Shown here: piece after piece, positions 7,061-40,916 of the stretch
How the letters are laid out: each line of letters starts with the position of its first letter
Position numbering within the stretch: the first letter of the stretch is position 1
The notes under the pieces: model-generated
Database searches by the model: none
Told to the model about the DNA's origin: nothing
What the model saw: only the letters and a program-made list of their open reading frames with translations
Program-made: the position numbers and the translations under genes
From: a virus
Taxonomy: Duplodnaviria > Heunggongvirae > Uroviricota > Caudoviricetes
DNA: 64,000 nucleotides
Strand: one strand, 5' to 3'
IMG/VR virus record: IMGVR_UViG_3300014205_000193

Positions 7061-7891
7061 TTACACAATTTGTTCTATTTCTGCATTATCAAGCCGTAAA
7101 CCTTCACAGGTGTTTTCCATTTTAGAAAATAGCATTGGTTCACGGCCTTCTGCCCAGCCCCAGTCCACCAACGGTCTTTTAGAGGATATCAGTATAGGGC
7201 GTAGATACCAGTATCTTTCTTCTAGTATGGCTATCAAACGGTCAGTATATCCATCAGTAAATTTCTCAGAACCAAAATCATCTATGATTAGTAAATCGCA
7301 AGTGAGTGCTCGCTGAAAATAAGGATGACCTTCTACTCTCGTATCTAACACAATGTTCTCAGCAAACATAGTTCCCGTGGTTAATATAAAGTTAGAATAT
7401 ATTTTGTGCCGCTCTACCAGTGCCCGAACGATGCACCATAAAGCACTGGTGCGTCCGATCTGTCGTTCACCTGAATATAGATATAACCCATTCTTTTTAG
7501 CCCTCGGAAAGGATTGAATAAAATCCACTATGGAGGACATGGCCTTGGGTTGTATCCTTGTCAACTCTTCTAACTTAATATTAGCGAATGCCGGGGGTAT
7601 CGATAGCTGGCGTTGCACGCTGGCTGCCGCAGATTCAAGTAACATAGTTTTCTTTATGGGACAGTTTTTCTGTGTAAACTTACCTGTATGTATCTCATGC
7701 TCAGTCTTCCATTCCGCTTTTAACCCTGCACAGGTGTGGCATCGCAATTCCTCACACATTATATCTCGTTGGTACAGGGAATAGTATCTGGCCACATTCT
7801 CCACCGTCATGGCAGTGAGGTTATTTTTTTGCAGCCACTGCACAAATTTTGCTTCTTGATAATATGCAGCAAGAAAGTCAATATCGCTCAT
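7061..7891 (-). CDS. DnaC/IstB-like AAA+ helicase loader
   Basis: P-loop YLYSGERQIGRTSAL, Walker B CDLLIIDDFGSE, and an N-terminal Cys cluster. It sits immediately downstream of the DnaB-like gene. Confidence 0.7.
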   Translation of the reverse strand: MSDIDFLAAYYQEAKFVQWLQKNNLTAMTVENVARYYSLYQRDIMCEELRCHTCAGLKAEWKTEHEIHTGKFTQKNCPIKKTMLLESAAASVQRQLSIPPAFANIKLEELTRIQPKAMSSIVDFIQSFPRAKKNGLYLYSGERQIGRTSALWCIVRALVERHKIYSNFILTTGTMFAENIVLDTRVEGHPYFQRALTCDLLIIDDFGSEKFTDGYTDRLIAILEERYWYLRPILISSKRPLVDWGWAEGREPMLFSKMENTCEGLRLDNAEIEQIV

Positions 7892-17699: not shown

Positions 17700-18259
17700 G
17701 CACACCGCAGGTAATAGATATACAGGACTGGATACGAAATGAGGTGCTGCCTCGTCGTCGCATGGACGCGCATATACATGAGATTGTATTCGGTCAGCCG
17801 TCATTAGGGTTTGCTGCTTATGAGGCGGACTATGATATAATCCGTAATCCTACTACGGAGTATATGAAAAGTAATGGGGAGTGCTCCTGTACTGACCCAG
17901 TGTATCTTAACAAATGTGTATGTGATAAAAAAGATGCTTTTTACGCTAAGACTAAGTTAGATAGTTCCACAGCTAAGTTTTTCGGACACTATGCAGATTG
18001 TTTACGAGTTGTTCCACAATATACTGCTAACACAACAGAAGCGTTGTATCTGGTGCATATTCTGCGGCATATTTTAAAGTACACAATTGAATCACAAGTC
18101 ACAGGTTGGCGAGTGCAGCTTGAATCCGTACTCAGAACTGGTGGTTTTGAATCATCTATATGCAGTGAAAGTTTACCTATGGCAATAGGGGATCTATTAT
18201 TAATTTATTTTAAAATGCATACCGAGGGTTTCCCTTTAAAACAAATGGAGGATTTATGA
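17696..18259 (+). CDS. hypothetical protein
   Basis: 187-aa ORF. Confidence 0.5.
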   Translation: MSTPQVIDIQDWIRNEVLPRRRMDAHIHEIVFGQPSLGFAAYEADYDIIRNPTTEYMKSNGECSCTDPVYLNKCVCDKKDAFYAKTKLDSSTAKFFGHYADCLRVVPQYTANTTEALYLVHILRHILKYTIESQVTGWRVQLESVLRTGGFESSICSESLPMAIGDLLLIYFKMHTEGFPLKQMEDL

Positions 18260-19161
18260 GTATAAGAAGTAAAAACAAGCAAGGCGACAAATCGACGCCA
18301 AAGGGAGCCGAGGCTGTAGCTGCCACCGCCGCAAACACGAGTGTTACTAGTGCCACTACAATTAATGTGCCTAATGGTACCTCTATATGGTACTCAACAG
18401 GCTATACCCAGACAGACCCTTACGGGCCTGCTACTAATGGTTGGATGGACAATGTCAGCGAGATCGTCAGCACCAAAGCATATATTCACAGAAGATTGCT
18501 TAATGGTAAGAAGAAGCGAGGAGACACCACAGGAGCTAACAATAGCAGTAATCGTTTAAAGATACTCTCTCCTATAGTTATGTACCGGTTTGTTAAAGAT
18601 CGGTTTAGAATCTTAGAACGTTCCCGGCTAGCTACTCGATTAGATAAGGTAGCAAAGCTGATGGAGAATGCGAAAGTGCTAGGACAGATCGCGATGGCTG
18701 ATCGTATTAGTGAGAGGTTTGGAAAGCTAATAAGGGAGCAGGAGCTACTGGCTTGCGGATATACTAAATATTTACCAAAGAAGTTAGTTCAGCAGTTCAT
18801 TGACTTGACTACTAACAAGGTAATCAAGTTGACTCCATTAAAGAATTATGTTAGGCCCATTCCTAAAAATGTGCAGAAGGTATTGGATGATGTGCAGAAA
18901 AAGAAGTTGTTCGATGGTTACATAATAATGCATACTGATGTCAATAATACCGCAGTAGAAAAGACACGAGAAGAGAAAAAGGACCCTATACTATTTGGTA
19001 CTCTTGATGACGCACCTGACATTCTATATTTTATTGCCGACTGGATTGATGAATACTGTGATTTAACTTTTGACCAGTTGATTGATACACTTGACCTGAC
19101 TAAGGAAGAATACAAGATTGAATCTGATGTTGAACAGTCTTTCTTGGACACCATACTTTAA
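18256..19161 (+). CDS. hypothetical protein, paralog of 32962-33930
   Basis: Shares the C-terminal block R(P)IP...Y(I/V)I(M/L)H.D...DPILFG....YFIADW.DE.CDLTF..L with the 32962 gene. Confidence 0.55.
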   Translation: MSIRSKNKQGDKSTPKGAEAVAATAANTSVTSATTINVPNGTSIWYSTGYTQTDPYGPATNGWMDNVSEIVSTKAYIHRRLLNGKKKRGDTTGANNSSNRLKILSPIVMYRFVKDRFRILERSRLATRLDKVAKLMENAKVLGQIAMADRISERFGKLIREQELLACGYTKYLPKKLVQQFIDLTTNKVIKLTPLKNYVRPIPKNVQKVLDDVQKKKLFDGYIIMHTDVNNTAVEKTREEKKDPILFGTLDDAPDILYFIADWIDEYCDLTFDQLIDTLDLTKEEYKIESDVEQSFLDTIL

Positions 19162-32961: not shown

Positions 32962-33930
32962 ATGATTCGAAAATTTAGGGATGGTAGTATGGAGTTGGAG
33001 ATATTTGTCAATTTTGTAATTGATAAGTCTCTTCCTAAATGGGCTGTTGAAAAGAAGGTGGAGGTGCCTGGGGATAGTAATGATCCTATGTCTGAGGAAG
33101 AAGGTGGTGGTGATAAGTTTACAGTGTCCGTCAGTCGGCAGGCATTTAATATGCGCTTGGATACACAGCCTGCGACACCTCCTGTTCCTCTTTTTGGAAC
33201 ACGGCTGGGCCAGTTTGAAGAGGATTCTGATGAATTCACCGTCAAGACTATTAAGCCACGTCGTACACTGAAGAGTCGTATTTTAGGGCTACTCTTTTCT
33301 TCTGCAACAAAGGAGCCTAAGAAAGATCCGCCTAAAGAAGTTGATTGGTTTTTTAAGGCAGTATTTAACAGCCTGAGCCAGGCAGAGAAGTTTAACGAGG
33401 ATTCCGCGGCCTTAGTGGAGCAAGTGGCTCAGGCTAAGCAGTTGGGGCAGCAGGCTTTGTTGGAGAAGTTAATAACCTCTTTGGATATCAAATTGTACGA
33501 AAATCAACTGATAGCTGTGGGACAAGGGCGCTATATTACAGATTCAAATGTTATTAAGTTTGCTACTGAGTCTATGCGCGGGCTTAGGTTGGATTGGATT
33601 AGGAATTTTATAAGACCTATTCCATCGGCGGTCGGTATACTCAAAATAGATGCAGATAAGTTAAAGGTATTCGATAACTATGTGATCCTTCATTATGACC
33701 CAGAGGGTAAGGCTACTGCTATGACGATAGAAGAGGAGCAGGCGGAGTTGGCCAGACGTCGTGATCCCATCTTGTTTGGTGTAATTTCAGGCAGTCGTAA
33801 GCTGTACTTTATTGCAGATTGGAAGGATGAGATATGTGACTTGACCTTCACAGATTTGTTAGAAAGACTATCAAACCCGGCTAGCCAATTACATAGGCAC
33901 GGTCCTGTTTTAAATCAGGGTGTAGTGTGA
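32962..33930 (+). CDS. hypothetical protein, paralog of 18256-19161
   Basis: Shared block DPILFGVISGSRKLYFIADWKDEICDLTFTDLL. Confidence 0.55.
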   Translation: MIRKFRDGSMELEIFVNFVIDKSLPKWAVEKKVEVPGDSNDPMSEEEGGGDKFTVSVSRQAFNMRLDTQPATPPVPLFGTRLGQFEEDSDEFTVKTIKPRRTLKSRILGLLFSSATKEPKKDPPKEVDWFFKAVFNSLSQAEKFNEDSAALVEQVAQAKQLGQQALLEKLITSLDIKLYENQLIAVGQGRYITDSNVIKFATESMRGLRLDWIRNFIRPIPSAVGILKIDADKLKVFDNYVILHYDPEGKATAMTIEEEQAELARRRDPILFGVISGSRKLYFIADWKDEICDLTFTDLLERLSNPASQLHRHGPVLNQGVV

Positions 33931-35677: not shown

Positions 35678-36247
35678 ATGAAATTATCAACATATGCAAA
35701 AAAACTGGGTGTAACATATCGTACGGCCTGGAATCACTATCAGCAAGGAACTATACCTGGGGCATACGCTCTAGCAAATGGGACTATTATTGTACCCGAA
35801 GATAAAATATCAGCGATTGGATTAACGGCTACATATTCTCGCGTTTCTTCTTCTGAGAACAAAACTAACCTTGTAGCTCAGTCAAAGCGAGTGCAGGAAT
35901 TTTGTGCGGCTAAGGGTTGGGTTGTTTCTTTTGTTGTTGAGGAGTGTGGTAGCGGGCTTAACGATTCAAGAAAAAAATTAGAAAAGCTCTTGGATAATAA
36001 GCTGGTTACTCGTATTGTGGTAGAGCACAAGGATCGCCTTACGCGCTTTGGCTTTAATTATTTGAAAAAATTATGGCCTGGAGATATTGTCGTAATAAAT
36101 GAAGCGACGGAAGACGAAAAAGACTTAATGCAGGACTTCGTGTCTCTTGTTACGTCTTTCATGGCACGCCTTTATGGTCGAAGACGTAGTAGACGTGTAA
36201 CAGAAAAACTTATTAAAAAACTAAACGATGATTCAAAAAGCATATAA
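35678..36247 (+). CDS. tnpA: IS607-family transposase TnpA (serine recombinase with N-terminal MerR-like HTH)
   Basis: N-terminal HTH MKLSTYAKKLGVTYRTAWNHYQQG; catalytic-serine region YSRVSSSENK; resolvase-like core. Confidence 0.8.
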   Translation: MKLSTYAKKLGVTYRTAWNHYQQGTIPGAYALANGTIIVPEDKISAIGLTATYSRVSSSENKTNLVAQSKRVQEFCAAKGWVVSFVVEECGSGLNDSRKKLEKLLDNKLVTRIVVEHKDRLTRFGFNYLKKLWPGDIVVINEATEDEKDLMQDFVSLVTSFMARLYGRRRSRRVTEKLIKKLNDDSKSI

Positions 36248-37388
36248 ATTTAAAATTTATCCAAATGCTTCCCAAGCAGTTTTGTTAAACAAGACTTTTG
36301 GTGCTTGCCGTTATGCTTGGAACCAGTGGGTTGAAAATTTTAATAAGCCAAAAGAAGAAATCAAAGTTTTTAACACGCCCAAACAATTTAAAACTGACTT
36401 AGGCTGGATGAAGGAAATTAGCTCAGCCGCTATTCAACAAAAAGAGCAGGACTTCTTTGCGTTCAAGCAGCAGTTTTTTAACCAGAAGCGCAAAACTAAG
36501 TTAGGTAGACCAGCGTTTAAATCTCGTAAGAATAAGCAGTCTTATAGATTACCAAATCAGAAGTTTTACGTCGAAGACACTAAAATCAGGTTGGAAAAGA
36601 TTGGTTTCATTAAGGCTGTTTTTGATCGCGCAATTCCTGTTGGTGTGAAGTTTATAAATTGTACTATTAGTAAAGATGTAGTTGGTGACTTTTTTGTGTC
36701 TATCCTTGTGGAGCAAGATGTCCAACAGTTGCCTAAAACAGGAAAGACCATAGGTATTGACGTGGGGTTAAAGTCTTTTGCTGTATTGAGTGACGAGACT
36801 GTTATTGATAACCCAAAATTTTTCAGAGAGAACCAATCTGGATTAAAGCGGATTCAACAGCACTTGTCTCGCAAGGTCAAAGGTTCTAACCATTATAAAA
36901 AAACCAAACGACAGGCAGCAAGAGTTCAAAGAAAAACTGCAAGACAACGCAATTACTTCCTGCACAATGTCTCGTCCTATATTGTAAATAATTTTGATGT
37001 TATCGCAATAGAGGATTTAAACATTAAAGGAATGGTGAAAAATCATTGTCTTGCTAAGTCTGTTCATGACGCTTCTTGGTCTGAGTTCTTCAGACAACTT
37101 GATTACAAGGCCGCGTGGTACGGGAAGACATTGAGGGTGGTCGGAAGGTTTGAACCCACGTCCAAGACTTGTAACGTGTGTGGTTTCTATTATAAGGATA
37201 TGACTCTTGACATAAGAGAATGGGCTTGTCCTTGTTGCGAGACTGTACACGACAGAGATGTAAACGCAGCTAAAAACATTTTAAAACAATCCGTAAGAGT
37301 TGATGCGGAGCTACAGACGTGGAGTGAGTATCAGACTTTAGGAAACCAAACTGAAGCGACTCTCTGTGAAGTGTCGAGGGTTTTATGA
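36228..37388 (+). CDS. tnpB: TnpB (OrfB) RuvC-like RNA-guided nuclease family, IS200/IS605/IS607
   Basis: N-terminus KAYKFKIYPNASQ; RuvC-like IGIDVGLKSFAVLSD ... AIEDLNIKGM; C-terminal zinc finger CNVCGFYYK...CPCCETVHDRDVNAAKNI. Confidence 0.85.
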   Translation: MIQKAYKFKIYPNASQAVLLNKTFGACRYAWNQWVENFNKPKEEIKVFNTPKQFKTDLGWMKEISSAAIQQKEQDFFAFKQQFFNQKRKTKLGRPAFKSRKNKQSYRLPNQKFYVEDTKIRLEKIGFIKAVFDRAIPVGVKFINCTISKDVVGDFFVSILVEQDVQQLPKTGKTIGIDVGLKSFAVLSDETVIDNPKFFRENQSGLKRIQQHLSRKVKGSNHYKKTKRQAARVQRKTARQRNYFLHNVSSYIVNNFDVIAIEDLNIKGMVKNHCLAKSVHDASWSEFFRQLDYKAAWYGKTLRVVGRFEPTSKTCNVCGFYYKDMTLDIREWACPCCETVHDRDVNAAKNILKQSVRVDAELQTWSEYQTLGNQTEATLCEVSRVL

Positions 37389-37726
37389 AAAAGGAATACT
37401 TTTCTATACAACCCACAACTATGAGTCCTAGAACTTGGAATATGTTTTCTCACGAGGGTAAAGACTTTGCAGGAGGCATCAAACTTATAGATACTCACGC
37501 TACTATGAGAATAGCTGAGTTCTATGGTAAGGATAACATTGTACCGGTGTTAGTCACAGAAGACCCAGCAGGTGATTTTAGGGGTTGGCTCGCAAAAGGT
37601 GACCTTATTCCTGAGATGATATACCACAAGAAGGTATTTGAGATATGCTTTGCTTATGGGTCGGCGGTAGAAGTGGAGAAGGGTAGGGGCGAGGTGATAC
37701 CTCTTAAGATAGAGAGGACGCTTTAA
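37385..37726 (+). CDS. hypothetical protein translationally coupled to tnpB
   Basis: ATGA overlap with the tnpB stop; 113 aa. Confidence 0.4.
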   Translation: MKKEYFSIQPTTMSPRTWNMFSHEGKDFAGGIKLIDTHATMRIAEFYGKDNIVPVLVTEDPAGDFRGWLAKGDLIPEMIYHKKVFEICFAYGSAVEVEKGRGEVIPLKIERTL

Positions 37727-38531: not shown

Positions 38532-38704
38532 TGGGAACGCAAGTTAATAAAGCGGCCTACGAGGCACTAATTAAAGAGGACATGGATGCAGTAGTGGCCG
38601 AGATGTCGAAATCCCCGGAGCGAGCACATGTGATTCAGATTCTCCAGTGGTCCGTTGATGCATTATATCCATCCACAGCAAGATTTGAGCAGTCTTCAAT
38701 ATGA
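38531..38704 (+). CDS. small hypothetical protein (57 aa)
   Basis: TGATG and ATGA overlaps with both neighbouring genes suggest a coupled small gene. Confidence 0.3.
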   Translation: MGTQVNKAAYEALIKEDMDAVVAEMSKSPERAHVIQILQWSVDALYPSTARFEQSSI

Positions 38705-38898
38705 CTTTCAGTGCTGATATAGACTGCCCGCATTGCACAGCGGTATTCCCTGTAAAATTACATGAGGGGGATCAGGGCAGCTGTCCAAAATGTGGTGCTA
38801 AATTTTTTATAGACAGCATAGGTTTGGATCATGATTGGTGCTTCCCTTCGTGGGAAAATCAACCTATCCAAGCCACAAACCACGAGACATCTAATTGA
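38701..38898 (+). CDS. small zinc-ribbon protein
   Basis: CPHCTAVFPV...CPKCGAKF. Confidence 0.4.
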   Translation: MTFSADIDCPHCTAVFPVKLHEGDQGSCPKCGAKFFIDSIGLDHDWCFPSWENQPIQATNHETSN

Positions 38899-38918
38899 TT
38901 ACTCGACCTTAAAATAAG

Positions 38919-38947
38919 AAAAGCCGAGGAGCCTCGGCTTTAAAGGA
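38919..38947. terminator. bidirectional rho-independent terminator
   Basis: aaaaGCCGAGGagcCTCGGCttta: 7-bp GC stem flanked by an A-run and a T-run. Confidence 0.6.
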
Positions 38948-39010
38948 ATTAAAAATGAATGTCTCCAACCTCGAATCTGTATAACCGGTCATTCAGCCGG
39001 TTTTATTAAC

Positions 39011-39169
39011 TTATATCTCTAATGATCGCACGCCCATTGCAGGCGGTGCATTCTTTAACTCTGTTATCCTGTTTTCACAGGCTGTCACTCCATCCACAAA
39101 ACCAACCTTGTATCCGCGCTGGAACTCGGCGGCTGTTTGTGCATTGGAATCTATTGTAGGACTGTTCAT
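39011..39169 (-). CDS. small protein (52 aa), second gene of reverse-oriented cassette
   Basis: ATG lies 3 nt after the stop of the Gly-rich gene (taaggtatg); GAGG upstream; MNSPTIDSNAQTAAEFQRGYKVGFVDGV... Confidence 0.35.
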   Translation of the reverse strand: MNSPTIDSNAQTAAEFQRGYKVGFVDGVTACENRITELKNAPPAMGVRSLEI

Positions 39170-39172
39170 ACC

Positions 39173-39457
39173 TTAATCCTCTATCTTATCACCAATCACC
39201 TTGCCTGCTGCTGCTCCGCCTACCGCAGCTACGCCTCCGACGACTGCCGTAGTCCCGGCAACAGTTCCTGTGATCGCAGCTGCTGACGCACTGGCCAATG
39301 CTGCTCCACTTAAGGTACTAATAGCTGTGCCGGTCCCGGCCGCACCTAATAGTCCTGCCGCTCCGGCGATTGGAAGTATCACGGGTGTCAATAATACCGC
39401 AGCACCACCTGCCGCCACTGCCCCTACGGCAATACATGCAACTTTGAATGGATTCAA
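39173..39457 (-). CDS. Gly/Ala-rich glycine-zipper-like small membrane protein
   Basis: 94 aa made almost entirely of G/A/V/L/T (AVGAVAAGGAAV..AGAAGLLGAAGTGTA..) with a charged tail KVIGDKIED. It is the only minus-strand gene inside the plus-strand block. Confidence 0.5.
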   Translation of the reverse strand: MNPFKVACIAVGAVAAGGAAVLLTPVILPIAGAAGLLGAAGTGTAISTLSGAALASASAAAITGTVAGTTAVVGGVAAVGGAAAGKVIGDKIED

Positions 39458-39469
39458 TCACGCCTCCAG

Positions 39470-39500
39470 GTTAAGTAAAGAAAGCCGACCAACCAAGGCC
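39470..39500. terminator. bidirectional terminator-like hairpin
   Basis: aaaGCCGaccaaccaaggCCGGCttt hairpin with an A-run and T-run. Confidence 0.45.
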
Positions 39501-39722
39501 GGCTTTATATTTCGAAACTTTCATTAATGAATAATATATACTCAAATCCATGCAATGTCAACATTTATTTTTTAGTTACTTGATCAGCTTTTAATAGCTT
39601 TTAGGGGTCAGTAGTTGTAAACTCCATAACCCAGTTCAACTTCTCGTGCATTTAGTAGGTGCAGATGTTATTTTGTAGTACATATAGTAATAGGATGATC
39701 TAAATCGAAAAAAGGGGTTATT

Positions 39723-40916
39723 ATGTCACAAGGTCCCGCCAATCCAGAGAAATGCGGTAAGAAGATAGACGAATCTGAGTATGTGTGGATTATCACGTCA
39801 CATATTAATCAGTCCACGCCGGATGCCAAGCTCATCCGCATGTTGAAGGAGAAGTATGGGTTTAAGGTTAGCTTGCCGAGTCTGCTGGCGTTTAAGCGTA
39901 ATTACTACCCGACACGTCTCACCATGCTGAAGAAGGAGACCATCAAGTTCAAACAGGAGCAGACGGGTCAGATACAGACCTTTATTGATGAGTCTCTGAG
40001 ACAGGCGGACGCTATTGAGGTAGAGATTGGCGGCATGACGAAGCAAGTTGAACTCGTTACCCGTCAGCTGGATTTTGTCCGTAAGTTTGAATGCTTGTTC
40101 CAGAACGCCATTGATCGCTATGTGGATGCATACGACCCGGCTTCGCCTGATCCGTTCTTATACACCTCATCACCTAAATCTGAGGCCCAGCGTCTGCTGA
40201 CGGAGGTAGTTACGGGTATGGGTGAGGAGGGGCGTAACGCGCTGGTGGCATATGTTCAGACTCGAAACGCTTTCCCGCTGGTTAAATTGTTCACGCTTCT
40301 CACAGCCAAGTTGAAAGACCTCCGCATGGCGAAGCACGACATTCATAAGAACATCTTCAAATCATATAGGAATCTATCCATCTCTCAGGAGATGACAGTT
40401 ATATTTGAGCGTTATAACGGTATCATTGTGGAGGAGTTCTTCCCGGACAAATCCAACATAGATGCGCAGAAGTTCGCCAGGGTTAATCAGAAGGTACGCG
40501 CACTCTTTGATGAACTCAATACACGTTATCAGGGCGTAGAGACTCCGTCTGACCATGGCCGTAATCCTACCACCGAGGAAATACAGAAGCTAGACCAGGG
40601 CATCATGCCTACCTCATCTCCAATAGAGGAACCCGCCTTAAAAGGTCAGAAGGGACGCCAACCAGCTAAATCCACCGTCATCGCACGTGAACGCGCTAAA
40701 GCCGCAGCCACCACCGCCGTGATAGAGGATACCGAGGATAGCGAAATAGAACCCACCTCTATGGAAGTAGAACCGCCTGACTCCGATACTACCGACTATA
40801 CACCTGAAGAGGCCGCTACGGTATATAAAGAGATAGAGACCCAAGCAGCCGAACCCGACCTATTCAGACAGGCACTAGGAGATGAAGATACACGCGGAGA
40901 ATCACATGCCGAGTAA
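39723..40916 (+). CDS. hypothetical protein with acidic C-terminus
   Basis: 397-aa ORF; GGGG RBS. Confidence 0.5.
   Translation: MSQGPANPEKCGKKIDESEYVWIITSHINQSTPDAKLIRMLKEKYGFKVSLPSLLAFKRNYYPTRLTMLKKETIKFKQEQTGQIQTFIDESLRQADAIEVEIGGMTKQVELVTRQLDFVRKFECLFQNAIDRYVDAYDPASPDPFLYTSSPKSEAQRLLTEVVTGMGEEGRNALVAYVQTRNAFPLVKLFTLLTAKLKDLRMAKHDIHKNIFKSYRNLSISQEMTVIFERYNGIIVEEFFPDKSNIDAQKFARVNQKVRALFDELNTRYQGVETPSDHGRNPTTEEIQKLDQGIMPTSSPIEEPALKGQKGRQPAKSTVIARERAKAAATTAVIEDTEDSEIEPTSMEVEPPDSDTTDYTPEEAATVYKEIETQAAEPDLFRQALGDEDTRGESHAE

Follow-up and report, generated by a model that had tools for sequence, protein, structure and literature searches.

The locus described here raises the question of why two small genes of a phage-like element are read against everything around them, and of what their products might do. 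It lies on a 237-kb phage-like metagenome contig; the window that we analysed is 64 kb long and is a reversed piece of this 236,752-bp ENA contig. The cassette occupies the minus strand amid plus-strand genes and consists of two back-to-back open reading frames (ORFs) of 94 and 52 aa with two strong hairpins (Table 1). An earlier, sequence-only reading had taken it for an insulated two-gene moron, possibly a toxin with its immunity partner. The independent reverse unit and the hydrophobic product that it described were borne out by our analysis, as was variability among relatives; the likeness to toxin families, the immunity pair and the bracketing by bidirectional terminators were not, and no foreign composition was found. 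The anatomy of the locus, its coding status, its family and its conservation in relatives together show a self-contained accessory transcription unit read against the surrounding genes, with, in silico, a promoter-like site of its own and a strong terminator.

Table 1. Features of the minus-strand cassette (positions are those of the 64-kb window).
Feature	Position	Strand	Description
Gene 1, 94 aa	39173..39457	-	TTG start; Gly/Ala/Val/Thr-rich; stand-alone member of the GLLGAAGTGTAISTLSGAAL module family
Gene 1 Shine-Dalgarno GGAGG	39463..39467	-	5 nt before TTG; read from sequence
Gene 2, 52 aa	39011..39169	-	ATG start 3 nt after gene 1 TAA; soluble ORF
Gene 2 Shine-Dalgarno GAGGA	39177..39181	-	7 nt before ATG, within the end of gene 1; read from sequence
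-35 hexamer TTGACA	39556..39561	-	Sigma-70-type consensus match, 17-nt spacer
-10 hexamer TATATT	39533..39538	-	Sigma-70-type consensus match; transcription would start near 39526
Leader terminator-like hairpin	39481..39506	-	10 bp, one G.U, then CUUUACUU; between promoter and ribosome-binding site
Cassette terminator hairpin	38920..38941	.	Perfect stem of 9-10 bp, loop of 4

By independent gene calls both cassette genes are opposite in strand to all 32 other genes within 20 kb, and the remaining minus-strand ORFs, located between 12 and 64 kb, have junk-like translations and are overlapped by ORFs of the plus strand. The earlier reading was thus right that no other minus-strand genes lie in about 50 kb, and gene 2 does begin, as had been noted, 3 nt past the stop of gene 1. 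The surrounding element has a phage-like gene set (DnaB, helicase loader, primase, HNH endonuclease and DNA methyltransferases); no capsid or terminase gene and no tRNA was found within the 64-kb window, and no nucleotide match to GenBank phages or PLSDB plasmids. Several of its other genes were recorded in passing. The plus-strand block holds an IS607-type pair (35678-37388), in which a serine-recombinase TnpA (Resolvase, 189 aa) overlaps a TnpB of 386 aa with HTH_OrfB_IS605, OrfB_IS605 and Cas12f1-like TNB domains; the omega-RNA region of the pair would lie near 37388-37700. Two further proteins in this block, encoded at 18256-19161 (301 aa) and 32962-33930 (322 aa), both match phrog_10081 (‘transposase’), which suggests paralogous mobile-element-like genes. 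A polyvalent protein of 2956 aa (45459-54329) carries an ART-PolyVal domain at residues 913-1035, and at the syntenic place the related contigs L010 and L011 have only a 710-aa ART-PolyVal protein.

Relatives of the locus were found through the adjacent 397-aa gene and are four in number. The P0167 contig (62% identity in the neighbour) has a minus-strand 94-aa gene alone, which by gene call is a candidate gene 1 homologue. In L010 (66%) an 86-aa gene 1 homologue on the minus strand is followed by an unrelated Cys-rich gene of 95 aa, and in L013 (50%) a 92-aa minus-strand homologue with its own terminator is followed by a gene of 129 aa or more that is unrelated. The most distant relative, L012/L045 (43%), has no cassette. 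A minus-strand gene is thus present at the site in three of the four relatives, with the P0167 gene counted as a candidate homologue, and its absence from the same site in L012 agrees with the earlier description as a moron. Since the relatives have an unrelated second gene or none, the conserved unit is gene 1 alone, with a variable second slot. GenBank phages and PLSDB plasmids yielded nothing when searched, by nucleotide and by protein, with the cassette and its neighbour, IMG/VR gave no relative of the 397-aa neighbour, and a metagenome scan returned only L011 and L012 again.

Two observations were made around this neighbouring gene. Upstream of it, at 39632-39698, stand the motifs CAGTTCAAC (39632), GTGCATTTAGT (39646) and TAGGATGA (39691), which are recognisable, although only partly identical, in L010, L013 and L012 and occur in a single copy in the window; they are a candidate phage-specific promoter or operator. 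In L012 a 71-aa gene with an Acb2/Tad1 hairpin domain (1855-2070) directly follows the 404-aa homologue of the neighbour; this domain belongs to a family of anti-CBASS/Thoeris sponges.

How might such a unit be expressed? The sequence-only reading had pointed to an AT-rich upstream region as a plausible promoter, and this region contains the sigma-70-type match TTGACA-17-TATATT (39561-39533, minus strand). With 11 of 12 consensus positions it is the best such match in a 6-kb region and, over the two strands of the whole window, one of only four that reach 11/12 or better; it is a predicted promoter, a consensus match. The TTGACA hexamer is also present in L010 and aligns with that of the window, and TATATT is retained in both L010 and L013. 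At the equivalent site L010 has TTGACA-18-TATATT, its sole sigma-70-like site in 1.3 kb, and two minus-strand terminator-like hairpins lie between this site and the gene; in L013 the -35 hexamer is poor (3/6).

Both of the hairpins that had been said to flank the cassette are real. The second lies at 39481-39506, however, so that the interval 39470-39500 given for it misses its 3′ arm, and it sits between the promoter and the ribosome-binding site. Because the promoter is upstream of it, this hairpin belongs to the cassette’s own leader and is not an outer insulator. It has a folding energy of -17.0 kcal/mol on the minus-strand RNA versus -14.3 on the plus strand, and the G.U pair of the minus-strand stem becomes an A.C mismatch when the plus strand is folded. 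In the leader of L013 the ribosome-binding site is preceded by a hairpin of 12 bp, several of them G.U, that has GCUUUUUAAC as its tail and folds with -31 kcal/mol on the minus strand versus -15 on the plus strand. A leader hairpin with a U-run was found in all three relatives compared by DNA, with unrelated stem sequences, and in the relatives both the folding and the U-run exist on the minus-strand RNA only. The hairpins of L010 and L013 therefore cannot serve as plus-strand terminators there, and the idea of a cassette bracketed by bidirectional terminators is not supported. The leader element appears to be conserved as a minus-strand RNA structure and not as a stem sequence. We read it as a putative attenuator or gate on expression, promoter and attenuator alike being consensus matches; it may instead be a 5′ stabiliser or give a short stable RNA. 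The region 38700-39800 has no Rfam match. The gating would be specific to this lineage, because the closest homologue outside it, P0019 (L046; 62% identity, on another AT-rich contig), is co-directional with its neighbours and stands at an operon end without a partner and without a promoter or leader of its own.

At the other end of the cassette the 38920-38941 hairpin has a strong minus-strand tail (UUUUCUUAUUUUA) and a weak plus-strand tail (UUUAAAGG). It is probably a good terminator for the cassette, and no other hairpin could stop the converging plus-strand genes, weak as its tail is on that strand. It is homologous to a hairpin in L010 (7097-7121), with a compensatory A-U to G-C change. 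In a scan of the 64-kb window, by our own and arbitrary criteria of strength, only seven hairpins of such strength were found and two of them flank the 560-bp cassette unit, the number of strong hairpins expected within 600 nt of a given one being about 0.11. We also noted a 27-nt direct repeat of 70% identity (38912-38938 and 39473-39499) that takes in, at each hairpin, the A-rich flank and the left arm. The repeat is absent from L010 and may reflect a terminator duplication or a coincidence.

The product of gene 1 was described at the outset as an almost purely Gly/Ala/Val/Thr membrane protein, and it is indeed small, very hydrophobic and rich in Gly and Ala: G, A, V, T, S, I and L make up 86% of its 94 residues and the 80-residue stretch from 6 to 85 is free of charge. 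Its C-terminal half is only moderately hydrophobic and its C-terminus is charged. Compared with the L001 homologue, 48 of 59 conserved residues are encoded by different synonymous codons, and the minus-strand frame is therefore under purifying selection; gene 1 is a true coding sequence. A Pro/Ala/Thr-rich plus-strand ORF of 108 aa (39201-39527) runs antisense to it. This ORF is only the mirror of the GGN and GCN codons of gene 1. In L010 the public gene call took such a mirror ORF (7476-7748, plus strand) over the family gene, and gene callers may choose the mirror ORF of Gly/Ala-rich genes in general.

Composition can mislead in a similar way. Gene 1 has 56% GC and the peak arises from codon positions 1 and 2, that is from Gly/Ala codons, and gives no sign of a foreign origin; such GC peaks may be mistaken for foreign DNA. 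At third positions gene 1 has a GC content (GC3) of 0.389, and the 19 phage reference genes average 0.409 +/- 0.059. The comparison of GC and codon usage with the flanks that had been proposed thus gives no foreign composition and, GC3 being equal to the phage average, there is no sign of recent import; the cassette is an old resident of the phage lineage.

The low-confidence AlphaFold model of gene 1 (pLDDT 59) has two long helices, residues 3-40 and 45-93, that meet at GTGT, and the protein may fold as a helical hairpin. Matches to Pfam, PHROG, NCBIfam and PADLOC models were not obtained for gene 1, and a sequence search of the PDB gave nothing for either product. The resemblance to glycine-zipper, entericidin, bacteriocin and holin families that had been suggested was not recovered by any model: gene 1 has no match at E<=10 to the glycine-zipper families (PF13488 and relatives), and Gly-zipper_Omp is matched by only two of 15 gene 1 relatives (E 0.0016). 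The spacing of the conserved core is GxxG and GxxGxxGxxG-T-G-T, not that of a GxxxG zipper, and the three GxxxG motifs of gene 1 are all within its C-terminal third.

Gene 2 has no homologue among 5.8 billion proteins, its sole match being itself, and no family match in Pfam, PHROG, NCBIfam or PADLOC. It lacks a transmembrane segment and contains GxxxGxxxG once (GYKVGFVDG). GC by codon position is consistent with a coding sequence and the ribosome-binding site is a good one; gene 2 appears to be translationally coupled to gene 1 and may be expressed, and it may also be non-functional. Among the gene 1 homologues none retains a related neighbour. Gene 2 is therefore best seen as a probable lineage-specific passenger in the variable slot and not as a cognate immunity partner.

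The gene 1 family is widespread, strongly conserved and unannotated. A word-indexed search found 14 relatives, and a full HMM search found 232 clusters at E<=1e-3 and 73 at E<=1e-10. The core of the family, from G32 to G64, is nearly invariant (GLLGAAGTGTAISTLSGAAL-SAS). The L010 member (7466-7726, minus strand) has GKDLLVSTNTN in place of the SGAAL-SAS segment; a double frameshift as the cause was ruled out, no frameshift being found, and the change may reflect functional divergence or decay. Among the best 150 matches of the family profile 45 are DUF726 proteins, reached at E-values down to 1e-16, in which the module follows an N-terminal zinc-ribbon region and precedes the alpha/beta-hydrolase domain; in L006 the DUF726 match (residues 138-485) includes the motif. 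Gene 1 ends after the hydrophobic module and has neither an alpha/beta-hydrolase domain nor a GxSxG motif. One family member is a LeoA-like GTPase fusion. The PADLOC model PDC-M09A is matched by L007, L006, P0054 and P0027, and relatives of the module occur inside PDC-M09A and LeoA-like proteins with E-values of 1e-15 to 1e-8; the gene 1 protein and its closest homologue P0019 have no match to PDC-M09A, and no other defence model matches gene 1.

A likeness of the family to ISG12/IFI6-IFI27 proteins (PF06140) was rejected: when the family core was compared by hhalign with four human paralogues the probability was 0.5% (E 0.13), and no family member matches PF06140. PDC-M09 is among 145 untested candidates that were picked out because they lie within known defence systems (bioRxiv 10.1101/2024.01.29.577857). 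Bactericidal phospholipase activity is reported for an archaeal hydrolase with a DUF726 domain (bioRxiv 10.64898/2026.06.10.730825). Yeast Mil1, the only DUF726 protein to have been studied, has predicted transmembrane segments yet fractionates as a peripheral protein (PMC4751606), and integral membrane insertion of gene 1 is therefore not certain.

Stand-alone members of the family are found in IMG/VR viral contigs after tail-type genes and in proteobacterial genomes next to an integrase, an AAA15/RloB-like pair or sigma-54-activator-like genes. In Fluviicoccus (L038, 2555-5207) the family gene adjoins an AAA15-like ATPase and RloB-like pair, and in Rugamonas (L027, 3093-5309) a stand-alone family gene adjoins an integrase; judged by eye, these would be island or defence-type contexts. 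Aromatoleum evansii (L029, 313-8613) and an uncultured betaproteobacterium (L042, 1698-8911) share a cluster of a 960-aa sigma-54-activator-like AAA+ gene, the family gene and three shared genes, whose products have 306, 203 and 457 aa (the 457-aa one looks radical-SAM-like by eye), ending in a further homologous gene of 568 aa in L029 and 221 aa as called in L042. Neighbour clustering over 35 family loci found the sigma-54-activator-like AAA+ gene as the sole recurring neighbour, at five loci, and no conserved partner gene.

These observations lead us to propose, tentatively and at a little under an even chance, that the locus is a conserved accessory cassette of a jumbo-phage-like element, transcribed by the host polymerase, gated, and encoding a membrane-acting protein for exclusion or defence. 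The sigma-70-type promoter would probably be read by host RNA polymerase, and transcripts would first meet the leader hairpin (39506-39481), giving a low output or a dependence on read-through or antitermination. Those that pass it would yield a 94-aa protein of almost exclusively small and hydrophobic residues, presumably a helical hairpin, that probably inserts into or binds the cytoplasmic membrane and may associate with itself through its small-residue faces. Membrane properties would thereby be altered to the benefit of the phage, most likely by the exclusion of competing phages or by a defence-type membrane effect. We infer such a membrane-level conflict role, of which exclusion and defence are examples, because of the links to lipase-like, dynamin-like and candidate-defence proteins and because stand-alone copies occupy island and prophage sites. 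One may go further and speculate that the approximately 30 residues of GLLGAAGTGTAISTLSGAAL-SAS are an unnamed membrane-assembly module shared by bacterial conflict effectors (here DUF726 phospholipase-like enzymes, LeoA-like GTPases and PDC-M09A) and stand-alone phage or prophage proteins, and that the phage copy, freed by antitermination, acts as an exclusion pore or as a co-assembler that disables effectors; as a whole we hold this extended version to be unlikely.

The same anatomy could be explained in other ways. If gene 1 were a holin, lysis timing would be set by a constitutive promoter and a terminator overridden late by a phage antiterminator, as in lambda PR′-tR′-S. The order of promoter, short terminated leader and membrane protein gene is indeed that of the lambda late operon, and the role would suit a small hydrophobic protein that has several helices and a charged C-terminus, but the cassette comes to a dead end at a strong terminator after two genes, has no endolysin-type Pfam domain within 10 kb on either side and is missing from the relative L012. 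Holin models of Pfam and PHROG do not match, and the family, fused to hydrolases and GTPases and common in bacterial islands, does not behave like holins; we judge this explanation rather unlikely. A stand-alone module could also work as an anti-defence decoy that poisons the membrane assembly of host DUF726 lipases, LeoA-like GTPases or PDC-M09A. The module is common to candidate defence proteins and DUF726 enzymes, for one of which, the archaeal hydrolase, bactericidal phospholipase activity is on record (bioRxiv 10.64898/2026.06.10.730825), and the predicted host-type promoter would permit expression from the start of infection. The idea is attractive but entirely inferential, PDC-M09 itself is only an untested candidate (bioRxiv 10.1101/2024.01.29.577857) and stand-alone copies are common in bacterial chromosomes too, which leaves the decoy with a small probability.

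Two explanations would make the cassette a toxin. In a bacteriocin- or entericidin-like toxin/immunity pair, gene 1 would form pores and the 52-aa product would neutralise it. Only 3 nt separate the ORFs, their ribosome-binding sites are coupled, the gene 1 product is extremely hydrophobic, tight control in the leader would fit a toxic product, and a GxxxGxxxG stretch in both products could let them pair. Set against this, gene 2 lacks any homologue, the P0167 contig has its minus-strand 94-aa gene alone, the second genes of L010 and L013 are unrelated, and L046, L001 and L003 have no related partner; nor is there a conserved neighbour cluster across the 35 loci. Bacteriocin, entericidin and immunity families gave no match in Pfam, PHROG or NCBIfam, and neither a double-glycine leader nor export genes nearby were seen. 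With the gene 2 slot empty or filled by unrelated genes in the relatives, the pair suggested by the sequence-only reading is not supported, and we consider it very unlikely. An addiction module of the type I toxin-antitoxin kind, with a hydrophobic toxin mRNA, a structured leader and control by antisense RNA, is in our view highly improbable. The leader is structured and may weakly sequester the ribosome-binding site, and antisense RNA could arise from the converging plus-strand transcription should the weak terminator on that strand be leaky, but 94 aa exceeds typical type I toxins, no plus-strand sigma-70-like site exists in 38900-39500, Rfam gives no match and fusion domains of the family are found widely.

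No class of phage accessory genes is less well understood than that of small membrane proteins, many of which govern exclusion, lysis timing or defence. Gene 1 ties one of them to a widespread unannotated module that stands ahead of lipase-like and dynamin-like proteins, and it therefore offers a short, tractable protein from which the function of the module may be learnt. With its conserved terminator between promoter and gene, the cassette also gives a simple, testable case of putatively gated expression in a jumbo-phage lineage that has not been cultivated.

Comparison with known systems places the cassette between several of them. Like the glycine-zipper proteins (Pfam Gly-zipper, entericidin and Cdz-type bacteriocins), gene 1 is dominated by small residues, is likely to pack helix against helix and has one GxxxGxxxG, at its C-terminus; it differs in the GxxG spacing of its core, with Thr/Ser, and in matching no such model, and the cassette, unlike bacteriocin loci, has no secretion leader and no immunity gene. 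To DUF726 proteins (PF05277; TMCO4/yeast Mil1) gene 1 is homologous over the Gly/Ala-rich stretch just N-terminal to the hydrolase fold, but it lacks the hydrolase domain with its GxSxG and stays below any Pfam score. PDC-M09A and LeoA-like dynamin GTPases contain relatives of the module, whereas gene 1 matches neither model and no partner genes of these systems are present. In lambda, PR′-tR′ (6S RNA) is a terminated leader upstream of the holin gene S. The cassette has its elements in the same order, with a strong promoter of the host type, then a short leader that closes with an intrinsic terminator, then the gene of a small membrane protein, but its operon stops after 0.5 kb without encoding lysis enzymes; the proteins scanned, which cover 64 kb of the 237-kb contig, included no recognisable Q-like antiterminator, and no binding site for one was identified. 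Phage morons are independent promoter-gene-terminator units known from lambdoid phages such as HK97 and HK022. In common with them the cassette has, in silico, its own sigma-70-type promoter and strong terminator and a small accessory gene unrelated to neighbouring functions and absent from the same site in one relative, and other gene 1 family members follow tail genes in prophage-like contigs. It differs from them in belonging to a jumbo-phage-like element without sign of lysogeny, in a minus-strand gene retained in three of four relatives, in its native GC3, and in the extra terminator-like hairpin between promoter and gene. The cassette is thus an accessory, independently transcribed small membrane protein unit, which is a known kind.
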